Origin: Candidatus Adlerbacteria bacterium
GTDB taxonomy: Bacteria > Patescibacteriota > Minisyncoccia > Phycocordibacterales > SBAW01
Direction of reading: 5' to 3'
Assembly: GCA_028286685.1 (NCBI GenBank)
Contig: JAQBRA010000002.1
Coordinates: 129,073-193,072, forward strand
Length of the DNA stretch: 64,000 nt
The translations under genes and the position numbers were made by a program. Of this stretch, positions 6,922 through 54,720 are shown in pieces (within the stretch, counting starts at the first letter, position 1; every line of letters begins with the position of its first letter). The notes under the pieces are model-generated. The model made no database searches. It was not told the DNA's origin and was given only the letters and a program-made list of their open reading frames with translations.

Positions 6922-8412
6922 TTACTTAACTAGAGAGAGCGCGTACTCGGGCCACCAGGTGCCGGCCGAGGGGCCGCCGTTGCATGCGCCGTCGGATTCG
7001 CCCGGAGTCTTTACCCAGAGATAGGCGTCTATGAGGCTCTGGCCGGTAGCTGCAGACGGACTCTGGCCCGTCTTGCGTCCCCACGGATTGCACCATTCGC
7101 TATTGCCGCCGTTGCCGTTGCGGGCGGTATCGATGACGAAGTGCTTGCCGCCGAGCGCTTGGGACACCTTCGTGCCGTAAGCGGACTCGTCCGATGTCGT
7201 ATTGAAGTTGGACACATTGAGCGAGAAGCCGTCGGCCTTCTGTATGCCCGCCTTCTCTAGCTGCGCAGCCATATCCTTGGCGTCGATCCAGCCCGAGTGG
7301 CCGGCATCGATGTACACTTTTGTATTGCTGTTGCTCTTGAGTATGGAGACTGCCGCGGCGAGCATGTCGGCGCGCTCTCGCTGGCCCGCGCCAGAGAGGC
7401 ACGCATTGCCCGCGAGCGCATCAGGCTCGAGTATGACGACTGCCGAGGCCGAGCCAATGCCGCGCGCAAACGCGCCGATCCATTTCGTATAGGCATCCTT
7501 GCTGGAAGATCCTCCCGCAGAATAACCGCCACAGTCGCGGCCTGGAATATTGTAGGCGACTAGGACCGGCGCAGCGCCTTCCTTTTTTGCCGCATTTACC
7601 ACCTGGGCCGCATCGCTCTGCACATCCTGATTCCAGCCGCCAAACCAGGAAGCAGTCGGCTGCGCGGCCAGATAGCTCATTTTCCTGGCATCATCCGGGC
7701 GATTCTGGCTCCACGAGGCTGCCTGTGCTTTTGCAGAAGAATTTGCATTGACGTAGAAGGTCAGGTCTTTGAGCGGATTTTTGCTTACGACCGGCACGGT
7801 AACCTGTTGGGCCGGCTGCGAAGGCATCGGCTGAGACTGCCCTGCGCTCGAGGTTGCCGCTTGCACCGCGCTGGACGTCGCCACAACAGCTGCCACAGGC
7901 GGCACCGGCACGGATGCTTGCCCGTTCTCTACAAAGATATCGACGCTCTTCTGCCCGATGATCGTATCGTTTTGCCGCGCAATGAAGTTTATTTTGTAGG
8001 GACCCGCTCCCTTCCAGTTCCAGCCGGACACGTCCACACCAGACTCCTTGTGGGGCGCATCAGTGTAGCTGTTGTCCATCCAATTCCATGAGCCGCCGTC
8101 CACCTGCCAGAACATCTCATAGGTACCGGGGTCGACGCCGTCTAGAGCGGCCTTAAACGGCTGGGAGCCGCTGAGGCGCGCGTCGTTCTTGGGCCACCAG
8201 GCACTGACGCCGGAGCTTGCCACCGCGGCCTGCGAAACGCTGAGCGATACATTAATTGGCAGCAGGGTGATATTAGTCAGTATGACACCGAGGAATACCG
8301 CCTTGAAGAATCCATAGCGGCGCGCACGCAAGCGGGATGCCGCAGCGGTTGCCGTGCTGATAATTTTATTATTAAGAGCTTTAAGAGAACGTATTTCTTT
8401 TTCTACTTTCAC
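6922..8412 (-). CDS. glycoside hydrolase family 6 (cellulase/cellobiohydrolase-like) with N-terminal beta-sandwich/linker region
   Basis: ORF track. The C-terminal ~300 aa carry GH6 features (VLVAYNIPGRDCGG, ILEPDALAGN, WVKTPGESDG). An N-terminal signal anchor is present. Confidence 0.8.
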   Translation of the reverse strand: MKVEKEIRSLKALNNKIISTATAAASRLRARRYGFFKAVFLGVILTNITLLPINVSLSVSQAAVASSGVSAWWPKNDARLSGSQPFKAALDGVDPGTYEMFWQVDGGSWNWMDNSYTDAPHKESGVDVSGWNWKGAGPYKINFIARQNDTIIGQKSVDIFVENGQASVPVPPVAAVVATSSAVQAATSSAGQSQPMPSQPAQQVTVPVVSKNPLKDLTFYVNANSSAKAQAASWSQNRPDDARKMSYLAAQPTASWFGGWNQDVQSDAAQVVNAAKKEGAAPVLVAYNIPGRDCGGYSAGGSSSKDAYTKWIGAFARGIGSASAVVILEPDALAGNACLSGAGQRERADMLAAAVSILKSNSNTKVYIDAGHSGWIDAKDMAAQLEKAGIQKADGFSLNVSNFNTTSDESAYGTKVSQALGGKHFVIDTARNGNGGNSEWCNPWGRKTGQSPSAATGQSLIDAYLWVKTPGESDGACNGGPSAGTWWPEYALSLVK

Positions 8413-8779
8413 GCTTCTAACTATGGGGTCGTCTTGACATTGACAGCAAGCGGTGCACTTTGGTGCAATGAAGATCTGCTGAATCTTATTGAAAAATAAG
8501 GCCCGTTTGCTTCATACAGGTACATGGCCCTTTCATACAGCGCACATTTTGCGGCTGGAGGAAGGAGTTTTAGGAGACGCTACCGACCAGCGAGCGGGCG
8601 AAGTCGAGAATGAGATTGAGTATGGAGATAAAAAACGTGATGATAAGCGTCAGGAACTGGAGGAGAAAATTCAATAAAAGGTTGAATATGTTTATGATGG
8701 CGTCCATGGGATTATTATAGCATTTTACATGTACGACCTAGCGGAGCATGGGGACTAAAACACCCGCCCATCACTACAC

Positions 8780-9127
8780 TTACTGCACTAAATACGATCT
8801 TATTCCTATGACGGCATAGGAAAAAATTATTATGAAAATATTTAACATCGGAAGCATTGCGAACATTTTTACAAGTATATGATTTCTCGGAGATTTTATG
8901 GCGGCCACACTGGCAAAACCTCCGATGCTTGAAATTATCAAGACTAGCGGCAAGACATAGATACAGAGCTTGTATAAGCTGTCGACAAAGCCCACCGCCC
9001 CCGAACTAGGCGAAACGGCGGCAAAATACATAACAGTCCAAGCGAGCACTACAGATGGGAACAATAAGACCAGCCATAGCACCGAAAAAAATATAGACCA
9101 CTTTCTGCTCATTGGCCCCGATATCAT
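8780..9127 (-). CDS. small hypothetical integral membrane protein inside an AT-rich islet
   Basis: ORF track, 115 aa with 3 predicted TM helices. Local GC (~42%) is far below the window average. Confidence 0.45.
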   Translation of the reverse strand: MISGPMSRKWSIFFSVLWLVLLFPSVVLAWTVMYFAAVSPSSGAVGFVDSLYKLCIYVLPLVLIISSIGGFASVAAIKSPRNHILVKMFAMLPMLNIFIIIFSYAVIGIRSYLVQ

Positions 9128-9250
9128 TGGCTAATACTATCACCTCTTGTTTTTGCTTTCGGTCAAATCGGCTCGTCAGCGATTCGCTTGCAGTCCTGCC
9201 TCGCGGTTTTGCTGAACGGGACTCGTCGCAGACACAATAAGACGGGACTC

Positions 9251-9289
9251 GGTCACAGATAATTTTGCAGAGCAAAATTATCTGTGACC
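9251..9289. repeat. perfect 18-bp inverted repeat (stem-loop) ggtcacagataattttgc-aga-gcaaaattatctgtgacc
   Basis: Arms at 9251-9268 and 9272-9289 are exact reverse complements. It is preceded by direct repeats cgggactcg (9213-9226 and 9241-9253). Confidence 0.9.
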
Positions 9290-9353
9290 CCGCCTCAGAA
9301 ACGCTTCCCCGGAGCGTTTCTTCCGGCCTTCGAGTCCCCGTTGCCCGGCAACC

Positions 9354-9381
9354 AAAAAGCATCCCCGAAGGGATGCTTTTT
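9354..9381. terminator. bidirectional rho-independent terminator hairpin (aaaaagcatcccCGAAgggatgcttttt)
   Basis: A GC-rich 7-bp stem with an A-run 5' and a T-run 3' lies directly 3' of tRNA-Asp on the minus strand. Confidence 0.7.
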
Positions 9382-9389
9382 ACTCGCTG

Positions 9390-9463
9390 CGCGAGAGACG
9401 GGACTCGAACCCGCAACCTCCGCCGTGACAGGGCGGCGCTCTAACCAGTTGAGCTACTCCCGC
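9390..9463 (-). tRNA. tRNA-Asp (anticodon GUC)
   Basis: Reverse complement GCGGGAGTAGCTCAACTGGTTAGAGCGCCGCCCTGTCACGGCGGAGGTTGCGGGTTCGAGTCCCGTCTCTCGCG folds with anticodon loop CT-GTC-AC. Confidence 0.9.
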
Positions 9464-9514
9464 AAACAGGCCGATTGTAGCCTAAAATAGGCCATTTACC
9501 AATATCGAACCTTG

Positions 9515-9588
9515 TGTCGGTGGAAGGACTTGCACCTTCGACCTTGGCTTTATGAGTGCCATGCTCTAACTACCTGAGCTACACCGAC
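9515..9588 (-). tRNA. tRNA-Met (anticodon CAU, elongator type)
   Basis: Reverse complement GTCGGTGTAGCTCAGGTAGTTAGAGCATGGCACTCATAAAGCCAAGGTCGAAGGTGCAAGTCCTTCCACCGACA has anticodon loop CT-CAT-AA. It lacks initiator hallmarks and lacks the C4/C5 acceptor features of tRNA-Ile2. Confidence 0.8.
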
Positions 9589-9639
9589 ATACTTGCCCCT
9601 TAAAGGCAAATTCAACGTATCATTTTTCGGGCCCCGAGG

Positions 9640-10374
9640 CTAGTGATGCCCGTGGTGGGACTTCAGTTTCAGGTACACGTGGGCGAAGGCAAACGCCGTA
9701 ATCGGTATAGTTACCAGAAGCCCCACCACCAGGGCTAAAAGGCCCAAAAGATTAAGGCCGATAAGGGCCAGGATAAAGAGCACCAGCTGCCCTTTGACGC
9801 CATGGGTCAGCTTGCTGCTCTTGTCGATGCTCTCTATGATGCCTGCGCCGTCTATGACCGCGAGGCGGGACATGGAGTAACGCAACGACAGATAAAACGC
9901 TCCGACAAGCGCTACGACGCCGATAAGAGCCGCGGCCACGACCGCTACCACGCTTCCCTGCCACGGGCCCTCGGAGAAGTTTACCGATCCAGTAGCAACG
10001 AGGATGCCGAGCGCTAGGAGTCCGCCAACCAAGAGAGGCAGGAAAGAAATAAGGCCTGCGAGGAGGCCGGAGCAGAAGTACTTCCATACCAAGCCGAGCT
10101 TGGGCACCAGGTCGCGGTAATGCGCATGATCGCCCCGGGCAAGCCGCAGGAAGATAACCGTCATGCCGGCTCCTAATACAATGCTAACAACAGAGAAGAC
10201 TACGGACGCGAGAAAAAATGCCGGTCCCGAATCTTCAAGCGCACTTTGTATCGCCGAAGAAAAGAACTGGAACAGTATCATGGTGACCACTACCCCAAAG
10301 ACCAGCCCCGAGTGGGCTTTGACCTTGTGCCAGCCAAATACGACCGACTCCTTTATCGAAAAAATATTTGTCAT
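9640..10374 (-). CDS. hypothetical polytopic membrane protein
   Basis: ORF track, 244 aa with ~6 TM helices and a His-rich C-terminus. It lies between tRNA-Met and tRNA-fMet. Confidence 0.6.
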   Translation of the reverse strand: MTNIFSIKESVVFGWHKVKAHSGLVFGVVVTMILFQFFSSAIQSALEDSGPAFFLASVVFSVVSIVLGAGMTVIFLRLARGDHAHYRDLVPKLGLVWKYFCSGLLAGLISFLPLLVGGLLALGILVATGSVNFSEGPWQGSVVAVVAAALIGVVALVGAFYLSLRYSMSRLAVIDGAGIIESIDKSSKLTHGVKGQLVLFILALIGLNLLGLLALVVGLLVTIPITAFAFAHVYLKLKSHHGHH

Positions 10375-10424: not shown

Positions 10425-10496
10425 AGCGGGGTGGAGCAGTAGTAGCTCGTCAGGCTCATAACCTGAAGGTCGCAGGTGCAATTCCTGCCCCCGCAA
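10425..10496 (+). tRNA. initiator tRNA-fMet (anticodon CAU)
   Basis: AGCGGGGTGGAGCAGTAGTAGCTCGTCAGGCTCATAACCTGAAGGTCGCAGGTGCAATTCCTGCCCCCGCAA is nearly collinear with E. coli tRNA-fMet (CGCGGGGTGGAGCAG...CTCATAA...CCCCCGCAA). Positions 1 and 72 are unpaired (A1/A72). Confidence 0.85.
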
Positions 10497-10567
10497 CACG
10501 AATGAAAGAGTCCCGCACAAGCGGGATTTTTTCGTGTTGCGGGAGAAAGATGCTCAAGCATCTTTCG
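10490..10567. terminator. nested hairpins immediately 3' of tRNA-fMet
   Basis: The outer 13-bp inverted repeat (10490-10502 / 10531-10543) shares its left arm with the tRNA acceptor 3' strand. The inner terminator is tcccgc-acaa-gcggga followed by a T-run (10511-10532). A second 9-bp palindrome gaaagatgc-tcaa-gcatctttc lies at 10546-10567. Confidence 0.65.
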
Positions 10568-10689
10568 TGCAGGAATTGCAGGCCGCAGCGTTGCTGTGCA
10601 TTTGCACAGCCGCGAGGCGGGGTCGCAAGCGAGCTTGGCGACGGCCAAGGTCGACTTGTGACCGATTCCTGACTGGCCTTGGCAACACG

Positions 10690-42313: not shown

Positions 42314-42464
42314 CCCTTTCTAAAGAACTGCCCGCACTATGCCAAAAATAAGGATAAAAAGAAAGCCGCGGTCCGGCTTTCGAATCCCTCACGCAAAGTG
42401 CCCCACACTTTGCTCCTCTCCGCTAACAAAAATGGCGCCTCATTGGCGCTCATTCTTGTACTAG

Positions 42465-48649: not shown

Positions 48650-48721
48650 GGGCGCGTAGCTCAGTGGTAGAGCCGTCGTCTTATACACGACTGGTCGCAG
48701 GTTCGATCCCTGCCGCGCCCA
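48650..48721 (+). tRNA. tRNA-Ile (anticodon UAU)
   Basis: GGGCGCGTAGCTCAGTGGTAGAGCCGTCGTCTTATACACGACTGGTCGCAGGTTCGATCCCTGCCGCGCCCA has a perfect 7-bp acceptor stem and anticodon stem GTCGT/ACGAC with loop CT-TAT-AC. Confidence 0.8.
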
Positions 48722-48864
48722 CAAAAGACACTAGCACCTGCCCTGCGGCAGGTGTTGTGCTTTTGTGGGAGGGGTTTTTCTTATCCACTCATTAAAATTT
48801 AAGGATTAGGTGCTACTATCTAATTTTAGAGATCTCCTGTTCCACTGCATACAGCGAGGCGCCC

Positions 48865-51910: not shown

Positions 51911-51972
51911 AGACGAGTGCCTAAATGTGGCACTGCGTAACAAACAGACACAAGGAAGGAAGGGGCTCTGTC

Positions 51973-52587
51973 ATGCTTGAAACCGGAATTGATACCGACC
52001 GCTTTTCTGGCCCTATGTTGTTCGGAATCGAGAACTACGATCCGTCGCGGATTCCCAAGCCGCGTTACCCGGCAGATCCAAGCATCCTCGATATGTCGCC
52101 GATCCAGATAAAGGAGCGGCGACGCAAAGAGGTGCATGCCCTGCTCGCCATGGGCCCGTACTACCGCAAGGCGCCGCCGGAACCTCTGGCCGTTCGTATC
52201 AATGACCGCCACAAGCGCGTTGACGTGTGGGGCCGCTCCCGGTGCCACATAGGCACCGCCGACGACATCAGGACGGTCGCTGGCGACGACGACCTTTCCA
52301 ACCACCTCTACATCGCCGACGACCTGTACTTGCGGGCTACTGGAATGACTCATCCCCTGTCCGACACATACAAAGCGGAGGAGGCGGAGCATTACGTCGG
52401 CGAGATAGACGGAGAAAATCTCAAAAAGTACAGCGAATCTGCCGTTACTGAAAGCGCCGACGAACTGGATGCTCTTCCGCCGGGAGTCCTATATTCTACG
52501 GACTCTGTCCGGCATCGCCTGAACGTCGTAAATATGGAGAAGCGGAGACTAAGGAAAATAAAACGAAGGAAGGAGAAAAAGCTCTGA
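51973..52587 (+). CDS. hypothetical protein
   Basis: ORF track 51925-52587. ATG at 51973 has a GGAAGGAAGGGG Shine-Dalgarno-like stretch upstream. The C-terminus is basic. Confidence 0.5.
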   Translation: MLETGIDTDRFSGPMLFGIENYDPSRIPKPRYPADPSILDMSPIQIKERRRKEVHALLAMGPYYRKAPPEPLAVRINDRHKRVDVWGRSRCHIGTADDIRTVAGDDDLSNHLYIADDLYLRATGMTHPLSDTYKAEEAEHYVGEIDGENLKKYSESAVTESADELDALPPGVLYSTDSVRHRLNVVNMEKRRLRKIKRRKEKKL

Positions 52588-52738
52588 ACATTACGCAACC
52601 ACCTGGAGAAGGCGCGGCACGCTAAGACTCTGTCTTACTGCCCGCCTTCTCCCCACATTTAGGCACTTGTCGCACTCGTTTGTTTTTCTGGCATTCATGC
52701 ATAGCATCGCTCCCCTTTTTATTGGAGAGGTGTTATAC

Positions 52739-53113
52739 GGGGATGCCAGGCTTAGACAATGAGAATGCTTGCTTGATGCGCGAAGTAGCAGTGGGAATCT
52801 GCTTAAAAATATCCCAAAACATAACTGCAAAAACAGTTGCATCGCCGTACTTTTCGGCGAACCAGTTCGCTTTCGCTTACGCCAAAGCGTAACTGGCATC
52901 CTCCTATCCTCGCCTGATGGATAGGTCCGGGTGTTATAAACCGGGCTATAGCTGGTGGCCGTAATCCATCCTCCAGCCGAACAATGGATTTGCAGATATA
53001 CAGTATTTGGTTTGCTTTACAGCTGTATACCTAAAGAAACTCAAAGCAAACTACACTTCGTAGAAGCTCTCGCAGCACCTTATTGCACGGCGGTTCAATT
53101 CCGCCCATCTCCA
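52739..53113 (+). ncRNA. ssrA: tmRNA (ssrA), one-piece
   Basis: The 5' GGGGATGCCAGGCTTAGACAA pairs with the 3' ...GGCGG-TTCAATT-CCGCC-CATCTCC-A, giving a T-arm plus 7-bp acceptor stem with one G-U. A tag-like frame GCA AAA ... GCC AAA GCG TAA (52827-52892) encodes AKTVASPYFSANQFAFAYAKA. It lies downstream of smpB. Confidence 0.6.
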
Positions 53114-53125
53114 CAAGTAGCACAG

Positions 53126-53145
53126 CCCGCCTTTCGGCGGGTTTT
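53126..53145 (+). terminator. terminator cccgccTTTCggcggg + tttt directly after ssrA
   Basis: The hairpin is embedded in a longer inverted repeat, ccacaagtagcaca (53111-53124) with tgtgctacttgtgg (53145-53158). Confidence 0.7.
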
Positions 53146-53273
53146 GTGCTACTTGTGGAAGAAATGGGAGCAAGCGAAGCTTGCGGCGGAATTGAACGGG
53201 CGCAGCGATGTTTTGCACTGGCAAAACCGCGAGCCGGGGTCGCGAGCGACTTTGCTGACGAGCAAAGTCGACT

Positions 53274-53297
53274 GGTGACTCAATCGCCCATCTCCAC
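53274..53297 (+). repeat. degenerate direct repeat of the ssrA 3' end (att-like)
   Basis: ggtgactcaatcgcccatctccac is compared with the ssrA 3' end ggcggttcaattccgcccatctccac. It is followed by a hairpin gcgcccaCTTtgggcgt plus a T-run (53312-53337). Confidence 0.6.
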
Positions 53298-53357
53298 CTG
53301 TTAAAACATTAGCGCCCACTTTGGGCGTTTTTGTTTTACAAGAGCTATTTACGCAGT

Positions 53358-53888
53358 ATGCGAGATACGCTATGGTGTCACCAGATCGGGCATCCGCCCA
53401 AAGCACAAAACTCCAAGGAGAGCACCGTGGATGCAATTGCCCGGATCATAAAGATCATTGAACTGCCCCACGGCGATGCGCCGGAATGGGTGCGTAGAGG
53501 ATGGATCGGATGCGAGATACCTTGCAAAGGGCTCGAGTGCGGACACATACCCGTGTATGTGCACAGCGTTGTTCCGCGCCTGACCCGCGGCCCGCTTACG
53601 GTTCCCGAATTTCTCGCGCTCCCCAAAGAGCAGAAAATCGACGGCTACACGGTCAACCAAGCCGATGCGCTTATGGCGCTCGAAGCCCACAACCCGGCAG
53701 CGGCCAAATGGTGGAAAGATCACGGGTTCCCTAAGAAAGGCAAGGGCAAGGACGGCTTCCGCTTCAAGCTCTCAGAAGTGAAAGTGGTCGAAGCTTATAC
53801 AGAAGAAGAACTAATGAAGCTTGGCGTTACCCTAAACCGCTACGACGACATGGAACGGGGCACTACGCGCCCTGTTGATCAAAAATAG
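53358..53888 (+). CDS. hypothetical protein
   Basis: ORF track 53331-53888 (TTG start). The first in-frame ATG is at 53358. There is no recognisable family. Confidence 0.4.
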   Translation: MRDTLWCHQIGHPPKAQNSKESTVDAIARIIKIIELPHGDAPEWVRRGWIGCEIPCKGLECGHIPVYVHSVVPRLTRGPLTVPEFLALPKEQKIDGYTVNQADALMALEAHNPAAAKWWKDHGFPKKGKGKDGFRFKLSEVKVVEAYTEEELMKLGVTLNRYDDMERGTTRPVDQK

Positions 53889-53922
53889 AAGTGACTAAAG
53901 CCCCGGCCTGCGTGCCAAGGCT

Positions 53923-54366
53923 TTATTTTTTCTTTGCTTTCTTCTGCTCGAAGTTCTTTACATGCTCGTGGTACTGGTGATAATCGGCGGTAAGCTCCTC
54001 CCCTTTTTTAATTGCGCGAGCGGTAACAAACACCTCGCCATCGTTCTTCGTTACCATGTTCGCCTTCTTGGAGTGATTTAAAAAGTACGACTTGTCTATC
54101 GCATCCATGCCGTAGTCGGGCACGAAATACACGCCATCCTGCAGCGCGCAAAAATCGCGCACGAGCTGCTTGCTCTCCTCAGGCGCGTCGCTCGCCTCAA
54201 GCTCTACCTCCGGAATCTCGAGCACATCCCCGCCTGGGTCGCAGTGCTTAAACGGGTCAACGCCTTTGGGTATCGGCCGTATGGCGACCACCCCTACCCC
54301 GTGGCGCGTAACGGCAAGCCGGCAATAGACGTCATTGAGCGATTTTAAAAATTGCTTCTTGTTCAT
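53923..54366 (-). CDS. SET-domain protein (putative protein-lysine methyltransferase)
   Basis: ORF track, 147 aa. The RHGVGVVA (GxG), FLNHSKKAN (NHSxxxN) and GEELTADY (ELTxDY) motifs occur in SET-domain order, and the C-terminus is Lys-rich. Confidence 0.7.
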   Translation of the reverse strand: MNKKQFLKSLNDVYCRLAVTRHGVGVVAIRPIPKGVDPFKHCDPGGDVLEIPEVELEASDAPEESKQLVRDFCALQDGVYFVPDYGMDAIDKSYFLNHSKKANMVTKNDGEVFVTARAIKKGEELTADYHQYHEHVKNFEQKKAKKK

Positions 54367-54372
54367 AGAGGA

Positions 54373-54720
54373 CTACCCGTGCGTGCGCAGATTGCGGACC
54401 AGGAGAGCGGCACCGCTTAAAAGCATGAACAGATACAGAGGCCAAACGGCGACAATGAGCCACGGTGCAGAAACTACCCACACCAAGGCAGCAAGCGCGA
54501 ACAAAAGCAGCGCGCCGGAGGAAACATGCATGTAAAAGAGCGGGCCGCGCGGGAGCGTGTATCCCATGCGTACGCGCAGCTCCATAAGGCAGACAATGCA
54601 AAGGAGCAACATGAGAGCTGCGCCGTAGCTGCTCGTCCACAAGCTCCACGCCACTGCAGCCGCCAAAAAAGGCGCGAGCGCGGCGGCAACAAAGGCTCCT
54701 CGGGCATAGATGCTATCCAT
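54373..54720 (-). CDS. hypothetical integral membrane protein
   Basis: ORF track, 115 aa with 4 TM helices. Confidence 0.55.
   Translation of the reverse strand: MDSIYARGAFVAAALAPFLAAAVAWSLWTSSYGAALMLLLCIVCLMELRVRMGYTLPRGPLFYMHVSSGALLLFALAALVWVVSAPWLIVAVWPLYLFMLLSGAALLVRNLRTHG

Follow-up and report, generated by a model that had tools for sequence, protein, structure and literature searches.

In tDNA islands, which are genomic islands and prophages at tRNA or tmRNA genes, the integrating element regenerates the gene that it enters, and displacement of the gene's first 3' fragment leaves a direct repeat running from the T-loop to the 3' end; copies accumulate in tandem, and the terminator is supplied by the element. 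For tyrosine-integrase integration into tDNA, Williams reportedly distinguished in 2002 a class whose sublocation is the T-loop. CTX-phi is said, in work attributed to Val et al. in 2005, to integrate as folded single-stranded DNA, with attP(+) forming a forked hairpin, in an Xer-dependent manner. In the bridge RNAs of IS110 and the omega RNAs of IS605/TnpB, segments that match the target reportedly alternate with conserved scaffold hairpins. CIMEs are reported to derive by deletion from ICEs or IMEs that are known; they and MITE-like derivatives of integrative elements have been reviewed (PMC5704250).

We analyzed a 64-kb stretch of DNA (the window) from a Candidatus Adlerbacteria (CPR/Paceibacterota) genome, in which a 183 bp unit (53115-53297) that encodes no protein lies directly behind ssrA. 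We think it probable that this unit is a non-coding, non-autonomous integrative element at ssrA, one of a family that lies behind Paceibacterota tRNA and tmRNA genes. It shares with tDNA islands the features listed above; unlike them, it spans about 150-230 bp between repeats and has no integrase or any gene, and unlike ordinary attP arms it contains a reverse-complement copy of the target that is split by a hairpin, together with covarying hairpins. Att-type repeats, the absence of recombination genes of its own, several copies per genome and presumed mobilization in trans are points in common with CIMEs and MITE-like derivatives. It differs from CIMEs in having no known autonomous parent, and it differs from MITEs, which have a fixed sequence and constant terminal inverted repeats, in that its interior is tailored to each target tRNA.

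As is reported for CTX-phi, about 85-90 nt separate two target-like sites of opposite orientation, which on one strand can pair to form a duplex copy of the chromosomal site, interrupted midway (here, in the predicted fold, on the sense strand), the fold is strand specific, and tandem arrays have the newest copy beside the functional site. Unlike CTX-phi, whose target is dif, the element is directed to the T-loop of tRNA genes; it has about one fortieth of the size, it shows no phage genes and no Rep near any copy, and its single-strandedness is deduced from G-T wobbles. With bridge and omega RNAs it shares one target-matching segment per DNA strand and a post-scaffold segment that equals the flanking target. 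Its segments differ from theirs in measuring 11-24 nt, its duplication is longer (12-21 nt, against 2 nt), it matches no Rfam omega-RNA or related family, and no IS110-type recombinase or TnpB gene lies beside any copy; a retron, bridge RNA or omega RNA was rejected because no reverse transcriptase, recombinase or TnpB is nearby. The literature that we searched contains no description of such elements.

The ssrA gene and the insert behind it

The ssrA gene (plus strand, 52739-53114) is intact. ARAGORN finds its tRNA-like domain and tag frame (tag peptide AKTVASPYFSANQFAFAYAKA), and Rfam family RF00023 matches it at full length (model positions 1-374; 95.2 bits against a gathering score of 47, E 7.5e-36); the CCA end is not encoded by the gene. 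The first-pass annotation had reported a second ssrA 3' end at 53274-53297, and we found the string ggtgactcaatcgcccatctccac at that position on the plus strand. Its last 13 nt (DR2, CGCCCATCTCCAC, 53285-53297) repeat exactly, at an offset of 183 bp, the T-stem 3' strand and acceptor 3' strand of the tmRNA (DR1, plus strand, 53102-53114), and similarity is still evident in the four bases that follow (CAAGT versus CCTGT). In its T-loop part, this right arm is degenerate through a 1-nt deletion; 17 nt are intact in the close relative L251. Shuffles of the window lead to an expectation of 0.09 matches at up to 1 mismatch, which makes a chance match between DR1 and DR2 unlikely, and we therefore rejected a chance origin for the repeat. 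The terminator-like hairpins that the annotation had placed after each 3' copy are likewise there (53125-53142 and 53311-53329, each with a T run).

The right arm represents the original 3' end of ssrA, which has been displaced. The terminator behind it (TAAAACATTAGCGCCC...GGGCGTTTTTGTTTT, plus strand, 53302-53340) is the ancestral one: in the related locus L002, ssrA is followed at once by this same terminator, and L002 aligns to both flanks of the insert, which identifies it as an empty site with its boundaries at the repeat. The past integration at ssrA that had been proposed is thus borne out as an insertion footprint, and the proposal of a gene-carrying island is not, because the inserted unit is 183 bp long and non-coding. 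The ORFs at the insert (57-107 aa) are all unannotated, and each overlaps either the tmRNA gene or the structured element. We rejected a group I intron in the tmRNA or tRNA T-loop because the upstream tmRNA is complete and RF00028 gives no match; the Patescibacteria tRNA introns of one published account sit in the anticodon loop (PMC13011429). A permuted or two-piece tmRNA was rejected because the gene is complete and the tmRNA_permuted model reaches just 16-19 bits.

The modules of the insert, all described here on the plus strand, begin with the terminator that it brought (53110-53159), which has a GC stem (53125-53131 and 53136-53142), the loop TTTC and a T run. When extended, the stem forms a perfect inverted repeat of 15 bp in which the last bases of the tmRNA take part; the terminator has a near-identical counterpart in L251 and a similar one in L014. 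Behind it lies a second copy of the tmRNA 3' segment, in inverted orientation (53155-53202), which the first-pass annotation had missed. Comparison of the arms resolves this copy into a reverse complement of the acceptor 3' strand (GTGGAAGAAATGGG, 53155-53168), which pairs with 53287-53297 in the predicted fold, and a reverse complement of the T-loop and T-stem (GGCGGAATTGAAC..., 53185-53202). Exactly between these segments stands the hairpin H0 (GCAAGC-GAA-GCTTGC, 53170-53184), which has a homologous hairpin at the same position in the remaining long-type copies. The inverted T-arm is an 18-nt inverted repeat with 89% complementarity; when the reverse-complemented tmRNA T-arm was aligned locally, its best match fell at this site with 12 of 12 positions identical, and in each of the 13 long-type copies there are 9-12 identities with at most 1 mismatch.

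RNAalifold places two conserved hairpins downstream. H1 (53199-53235, also recovered by the covariance model R1 described below) consists of three stacked stems with 13 pairs, 12 of which show changes on both sides. H2 (53238-53280) has 19 pairs, 16 of them compensatory, and the loop GACG; its lower stem (GGTCGCG / TGGTGAC) contains conserved G-U pairs and adjoins the right repeat. The order of modules in the element is thus terminator, inverted acceptor, H0, inverted T-loop and T-stem, H1, H2 and direct copy, the last running from the middle of the T-loop through the 3' end of the target.

A structured family behind tRNA and tmRNA genes

We ran R1, a covariance model of the H1 and H2 hairpins, on the window and related genomes. 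It found 17 copies at E < 0.001, and L251 brings the number to 18; 16 of the 18 begin 43-92 nt past a same-strand tRNA or tmRNA gene. In 9 of 16 copies, a direct repeat of 12-21 nt covers the segment between the T-loop and the 3' end. At least 13 copies, which sit at tRNA-type genes of four kinds, share one order and spacing of modules, the core beginning 59-92 nt past the tRNA end and the repeats lying 152-226 bp apart, and the arms fit whichever gene adjoins (tmRNA, Met, Asp or Ile). In a survey of 68 tRNA-type genes, a downstream inverted T-arm copy was found at 15 (upstream control, 0), and a direct repeat of at least 10 nt at 12 (control, 0), one of which is merely the neighboring tRNA-Thr gene. 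Two weak matches lacked arms: one at L038, and core-like hairpins at L047 after a small gene whose translation resembles a GIY-YIG nuclease by eye.

The window itself holds three full and two partial copies. The second full copy (plus strand, 10498-10689; R1 101.6 bits at 10579-10665) lies behind tRNA-Met (10425-10497), and its arms fit the unusual T-loop of that tRNA. The third (minus strand, 9240-9388; R1 43.3 bits at 9249-9330) lies behind tRNA-Asp (minus strand, 9389-9463), has the 12-nt direct repeat CGAGTCCCGTCT, and is followed by a further, degenerate tandem copy at about 9160-9239. As in L004, which also has tandem copies, the outer one is the more decayed. A partial copy behind tRNA-Ser (minus strand, 42361-42463), recognized by sequence, keeps the terminator, inverted acceptor, H0 and inverted T-arm (a 12-nt match) and lacks H1, H2 and the direct repeat.

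Pairing across the family is strongly conserved. In the consensus, 94.6% of alignment cells were paired, compared with 28-47% in slid controls, and 28 of 32 base pairs had changed on both sides, a level reached by none of 500 shuffles. Wobbles favor the tRNA-sense strand (31 G-T or T-G cells against 4 A-C or C-A), and the predicted folding energy is -68.9 kcal/mol (z -6.1) on the plus strand versus -57.1 on the minus strand. On the sense strand, pairing between the inverted and direct copies is predicted to yield about 24 bp of duplex that replicate the target. H0 would branch off this replica and H1 and H2 would cap it as a fork, giving a rod that is common to the copies with an intact right repeat. 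Whether the folding molecule is DNA or RNA, its single-strandedness is suggested by the G-T wobble pairs. A tRNA-like gene on the minus strand was rejected, as the wobble pairs favor the plus strand and ARAGORN reports none.

The window and L251 copies are near-identical and yet differ by two pair swaps in H2, and such compensatory changes indicate selection on the structure. A dead insertion does not need selection of this kind, which counts against reading the unit as a plain mobile insertion and, with the strong covariation and the conserved G-U pairs on the sense strand, fits a host-functional, cis-encoded structured RNA that would arise by readthrough from the tRNA or tmRNA precursor or by processing of it. 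In this reading the 3' half of the precursor would be bound by the antisense arm, for which the downstream sense copy would be a competitor, H1 and H2 would bind a protein or ligand, and the unit would control the maturation, stability or termination of tRNA-type RNA. Part of the architecture at least is present at five of the eight tRNA-type genes of the window, in keeping with such a role. The complementarity runs into the genomic trailer and not into a CCA end, so that the pairing partner would be the precursor or the gene; on the same ground we rejected a retroviral-type primer-binding site for mature tRNA. The inverted T-arm stays matched in all of the long copies, including those whose right repeat has decayed, a pattern that mobility explains no better than a function in cis or palindrome correction would.

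A functional RNA of this kind would have to contend with the good intrinsic terminator that separates the element from the tRNA gene. The search for a promoter-like site was negative, and scans of Rfam 15 gave noise-level matches only, in permissive searches (three loci, four copies). The element is also absent from the ssrA locus of the close relatives L002, L007 and L008, and is therefore dispensable. Moreover, similarity of the core does not track the relatedness of the hosts: the window and L004 share 82.7% identity in tmRNA and 65.5% in the core, while the window and L019 share 59.8% in tmRNA and 83.9% in the core. The empty site, the decaying outer copies of tandems and this host-incongruent core argue for insertion and horizontal movement, and we consider it unlikely that the unit is a host-functional RNA. 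The terminator within the L004 element resembles the native terminator of L002, which a simple single-integration history does not predict and which counts against the mobile reading.

Could the insert instead be a scar, the joined attL and attR arms of a prophage or island at ssrA that was once larger and is now inactive? Complete attP regions have a size range that includes about 180 bp, into which the total length of the insert (~180 bp) fits. A tDNA 3' end repeated directly beside a gene that has been regenerated is the classic mark of tDNA islands, which the Islander database catalogs (PMC4383910). Independent deletions would not, however, reproduce at least 13 copies of one order and spacing at four kinds of target, and the stems covary and the arms are tailored to each target. 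Neither the related loci (about 560 kb) nor viral contigs yielded a full-length, gene-bearing relative, and we regard a deletion scar as improbable.

The genes downstream of ssrA

The gene that is convergent with ssrA (JWL87_208, minus strand, 53923-54366) encodes a stand-alone SET-domain protein of 147 aa, an assignment made in the first-pass annotation and upheld here by profile, motifs and fold. PF00856 matches over profile positions 1-104 of 105 with 35.9 bits (cut-off 22.4); the cofactor and catalytic motifs GxG, NHS and ELxxDY, the catalytic Tyr among them, are invariant in 34 homologs (G23-V24-G25, N97-H98-S99 and E123-E124-L125...Y129), and the Lys-rich tail is present. AlphaFold2 predicts a SET fold (mean pLDDT 84). 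All 50 PDB entries among the Foldseek matches listed are SET-domain methyltransferases (probability 1.00), with TM-scores of merely 0.36-0.48. In its fold and motifs the protein resembles viral vSET, the catalytic core of SETD8 and S. pombe Set7, and like other minimal stand-alone SET methyltransferases it falls in the range of about 120-160 aa without accessory domains. It differs from the minimal SET proteins of solved structure in its marginal sequence similarity to any of them (profile E 0.003) and in belonging to a large clade of roughly 140-aa proteins, in which all close homologs with a named source come from Patescibacteria-group bacteria. Bacterial and archaeal SET proteins have been reviewed (PMC3980110); we found no relevant description of CPR SET proteins in the literature searched.

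A larger island had also been envisaged, targeted to ssrA and carrying a hypothetical gene and an effector-type SET gene as cargo. The duplicated ssrA 3' end on which this idea drew exists, and gene content between ssrA and the SET gene differs among relatives. Both repeats, however, lie upstream of both genes, and the synteny of relatives contradicts the proposal: the SET gene directly follows ssrA (gaps of about 27-35 nt) in L002, L007 and L008, which lack the repeat, and lies within a few kb of ssrA in L006, L009 and L251. Its divergence tracks that of SmpB and FtsH, as expected of a core gene (72-83% identity to relatives, against 80-87% and 76-89% in the same genomes), and there is no GC anomaly or compositional shift. 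We consider such an island very improbable. On the evidence of its sequence and neighborhood, the SET gene is a vertically inherited gene of the lysine-methyltransferase type and a long-time neighbor of ssrA, not cargo. The protein is strongly conserved in free-standing Paceibacterota genomes, which suggests that its substrate has a housekeeping role.

The hypothetical gene is not part of the insert either. A start at 53358 had been assigned to it; the most likely start is GTG 53427, six bases past an AAGGAG motif, and the 153-aa product from that codon (plus strand, 53427-53888) equals the deposited JWL87_207. This orphan belongs to no Pfam or NCBIfam family, is absent from the ssrA loci of relatives and has just 2 homologs in 5.8 billion proteins, in contexts that are unrelated as far as short contigs show. 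A second ORFan (JWL87_206, 220 aa, plus strand, 51925-52587) lies in an insertion of ~830 bp between smpB and ssrA, a gap that measures about 60 nt in relatives.

Proposed mobilization of the element and its implications

If the insert is an integrative element, it would have entered the segment of ssrA from the T-loop to the 3' end, its own copy would have rebuilt the 3' end of the gene, and the original end would have been pushed to the right with its terminator to become the present degenerate copy. A recombinase encoded elsewhere would carry out strand exchange in the T-loop, with the tRNA gene and the folded or duplex site as partners; tandem arrays would arise from repeated events of this kind. 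Both mobility in trans and this crossover point are deductions from the architecture. Neither the window nor the related loci yielded a mobilizing partner or an integrase, and no integrase or cargo gene lies between the repeats. A crude scan for tyrosine-recombinase motifs was negative in the window and about 560 kb of related loci, and Pfam searches of 10 neighboring ORFs revealed no recombinase, Rep or transposase beside any copy. No protein is common to the neighborhoods, in which the ORFs are housekeeping genes or orphans. The related loci and viral contigs contained no larger coding relative; pattern scans of IMG/VR gave chance matches or nothing, and a JGI metagenome scan gave 19 chance matches in GC-rich coding DNA, and neither returned a copy of the element.

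A bolder version of the mobile reading, which we hold only tentatively and judge somewhat unlikely, is that these form a class, not described before, of target-programmed miniature mobile elements in which the antisense and sense target segments between scaffold hairpins form a nucleic-acid address. The address might act as a folded single-strand mimic of attP or as a guide RNA, and one trans-acting recombinase could then direct insertion into the T-loop of any tRNA-type gene, the address being rewritten for each target.

For annotation, a fragment of a tRNA or tmRNA 3' end in a Paceibacterota genome should not be taken to mark the edge of an island that carries genes. Compared with the element, the SET gene comes as less of a surprise; a highly conserved, stand-alone SET protein encoded beside ssrA in genome-reduced bacteria points to a candidate housekeeping target of methylation. 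If the family is mobile, its members would be among the smallest site-specific integrative elements known to us, and they would occur in CPR bacteria, a group in which little is known about mobile DNA and recombination systems. The design of the element, in which one folded strand would form a duplex copy of its target and covariation shows the scaffold hairpins to be conserved, suggests that recognition of tRNA genes may be re-addressable through short segments, which would bear on target switching by integrative elements and on programmable recombination.

The insert at the 3' end of ssrA

The tmRNA gene is complete (52739-53114, forward strand; ARAGORN and Rfam agree), with smpB next upstream and ftsH farther out. 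The first-pass annotation had read the locus as a duplicated ssrA 3' end, each copy followed by its own terminator-like hairpin, left by integration of an island. The duplication is real: the last 13 nt of the string at 53274-53297 (53285-53297) exactly repeat 53102-53114, with 0.09 matches in shuffled windows when one mismatch was allowed, and a terminator-like hairpin stands 3' of both copies. The same tmRNA 3' segment also occurs inverted, at 53155-53202, which had been overlooked.

When we aligned the window with L002, a related locus in which the site is empty, the match ran to the end of ssrA and resumed at TAAAACATT(T/A)GCGCCC...GGGCGTTTTTGTTTT, which in the window stands 3' of the second copy of the ssrA end. 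This places the insertion at 53115-53297 (183 bp), bounded by the repeat, and the ancestral terminator directly 3' of the displaced ssrA copy. Past integration at ssrA thus stands, but the insert is only 183 bp and excludes both the SET-domain gene and its hypothetical neighbor. Far from random, the insert is made up, from left to right, of a terminator whose stem reaches into the tmRNA 3' end (53110-53159); GTGGAAGAAATGGG (53155-53168), which is the acceptor 3' strand in reverse complement; the small hairpin H0 (53170-53184); the T-loop and T-stem, again in reverse complement (53185-53202); a core of two hairpins, H1 and H2 (53199-53280); and the direct repeat at its right end.

The space separating smpB from ssrA, ~60 nt in relatives, holds an ~830-bp insertion in the window (51911-52738) with the 220-aa ORF JWL87_206. 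This ORF has no homolog among 5.8 billion proteins and could be either spurious or a gene of very recent origin.

The SET gene and its neighborhood

The SET assignment was borne out. The 147-aa ORF (53923-54366, reverse strand) scores above the Pfam SET threshold, and its AlphaFold2 model (mean pLDDT 84) likewise indicates a SET fold: every one of the 50 PDB matches listed by Foldseek is a SET domain (SETD8, S. pombe Set7, MLL1/3/4, and vSET among them). Sequence similarity to any solved SET domain is marginal. The GxG, NHS, and ELxxDY motifs are invariant across 34 homologs. The clade comprises stand-alone proteins of ~140 aa (683 representative clusters at E < 1e-3), and every close homolog with a named source comes from Patescibacteria-group bacteria. 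SET and the two proteins encoded upstream of it are identical to JWL87_206 to JWL87_208 from a metagenome-assembled genome of Candidatus Adlerbacteria, which places the window in a CPR (Paceibacterota) bacterium. The hypothetical gene (153 aa, identical to the deposited protein) most likely starts at GTG 53427, not at 53358 as annotated; its two homologs among 5.8 billion proteins lie in other contexts, as far as short contigs show.

The proposal that these two genes are island cargo did not survive comparison with 80 loci from species-representative genomes, fetched via SmpB. The order ftsH(-), smpB(+), ssrA(+), SET(-) recurs in Paceibacterota relatives. In L002, L007, and L008 the repeat is absent and only ~27-35 nt separate the ssrA end from the SET stop codon; in L006, L009, and L251 the SET gene lies 0.7-5 kb from ssrA, with housekeeping or orphan genes between. 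Identity to the proteins of these relatives is 72-83% for SET, 80-87% for SmpB, and 76-89% for FtsH, and GC content is unremarkable. The synteny, core-gene-like divergence, and GC content contradict the cargo reading, and the SET gene is a genuine, ancestral neighbor of ssrA.

Several other features lie nearby. A membrane-like ORF of 115 aa (54373-54720), directly upstream of the SET gene on the same strand, lacks a tblastn counterpart across the 80 loci and may be spurious or lineage specific. A tRNA-Ile gene with anticodon UAU (48650-48722) lies no more than a few kb from ftsH/smpB/ssrA in most of the Paceibacterota loci compared (likewise L003, L005-L011, L013, L015, L017, L019, L022-L024, L027, L028, L032, L035, L037, L041, L042, and L049), which suggests that AUA is decoded without lysidine. 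In L005, a LOOT RNA (Rfam RF03000, 86.8 bits; 10107-10227) lies ~3 kb downstream of ssrA.

A structured family with arms that match the adjacent gene

The same arrangement was found behind ssrA in L004, L011, L014, and L019, behind tRNA-Ile(UAU) in L019, and behind tRNA-Met in the window. The RNAalifold structure of seven H1-H2 cores has 32 pairs, and compensatory changes occur in 16. We built a covariance model on the seven cores; it detected three window copies, one each behind ssrA, tRNA-Met, and tRNA-Asp, and 17 across the related loci and the window at E < 0.001, plus one in L251. Sixteen of the 18 begin 43-92 nt 3' of a tRNA or tmRNA gene and share its strand; the other two, in L047 and L038, are weak matches without arms. 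In the 17-copy alignment, 94.6% of cells were paired, a value inflated by fitting to the model, and 28 of 32 pairs showed changes on both sides; fitting does not account for the types of compensatory pair. None of 500 shuffles reached these values, and slid controls were 28-47% paired. G-T/T-G cells outnumbered A-C/C-A cells (31 versus 4) and the plus strand gave the better fold, which identifies the tRNA-sense strand as the one that folds. No family was detected when three loci, which together hold four copies, were scanned permissively against Rfam.

The arms are tailored to the adjacent gene. In all 13 long-type copies, the best local match of the reverse-complemented T-arm to that gene was 9-12 nt with at most one mismatch, even for unusual T-loops such as the TGCAATT of the tRNA-Met gene; the direct arm ranged from 21/21 identical to decayed. 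We also surveyed 68 tRNA-type genes in 51 loci independently of the model. Inverted T-loop/T-stem copies of at least 9 nt followed 15 genes and preceded none; direct repeats of 10 nt or more followed 12 genes and preceded none, although one of these 12 is simply the neighboring tRNA-Thr gene. Exact repeats of 12-21 nt start in the T-loop and end at the gene 3' end, a pattern known for integrases with T-loop crossover.

All copies with an intact right repeat share one rod fold, running from an acceptor helix past the H0 branch and a T-loop/T-stem helix to the H1/H2 fork; alternatively, the inverted arm can pair, via the terminator, with the 3' end of the gene itself. L020 (6935-7125) has the terminator, inverted arm, H0, inverted T-arm, and a 17-nt direct repeat around a shorter, different core, so the flanking architecture is more general than the core family. 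In L017 (7100-7170), an extra ~55-nt hairpin between H1 and the GCCGGGGTC junction indicates that this position tolerates insertions.

Evidence of movement and of selection on structure

Evidence of movement includes the empty site in L002, the patchy distribution among close relatives, and tandem arrays with a more decayed outer copy, in L004 and behind tRNA-Asp in the window. The second L004 copy (7082-7260), directly after the first, is more diverged and below the model threshold; it retains the terminator, H0, and inverted T-arm. Two further lines of evidence are the incongruence of core and tmRNA identities between the window and its relatives (65.5% and 82.7% against L004, 83.9% and 59.8% against L019) and the partial copies that the window carries behind tRNA-Ser and behind tRNA-Ile. 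Behind tRNA-Ile (48723-48772), the terminator stem reaches into the acceptor 3' strand (TTTTGTGGG), a trait shared with short-type elements behind tRNA-Ile in L019, L027, and L028, but H1 and H2 are missing; this is either a deleted copy or the native state beside which cores insert.

The window and L251 copies are near-identical, and two of their differences are compensatory pair swaps in H2, which shows selection on structure. The inverted T-arm stays matched where the direct repeat has decayed, and the element-internal terminator of L004 resembles the native terminator of L002. These three observations complicate a purely selfish reading.

We found no recombinase, Rep, or transposase gene near any copy, no larger relative carrying genes, and no copy in IMG/VR or the JGI metagenome collection, where all pattern matches were due to chance. 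Full-text literature searches returned no description of such an element; none of these negative results proves that it is new. The group I introns reported in Patescibacteria tRNA genes lie in the anticodon loop and are unrelated. In L047 (8108-8495), a 99-aa ORF looks, by eye, like a GIY-YIG nuclease; the weak core match directly after it (41 bits) has no tRNA-derived arms and no adjacent tRNA gene. An 804-aa ORF directly 3' of the L004 tandem elements (7481-9895) matches no Pfam family and has a D...E-A-K stretch recalling, by eye, PD-(D/E)xK nucleases; it could be a defense-type gene in a variable region behind ssrA.

The description that best fits the ssrA insert is a miniature non-autonomous element that integrated at the T-loop-to-3'-end of ssrA and belongs to a structured family targeting tRNA-type genes in Paceibacterota. 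The foremost rival reading is a trailer RNA with a function in the host. The element would most likely move by site-specific recombination in trans, presenting a replica of its target, possibly as folded single-stranded DNA (as in CTX-phi), duplex DNA, or RNA.
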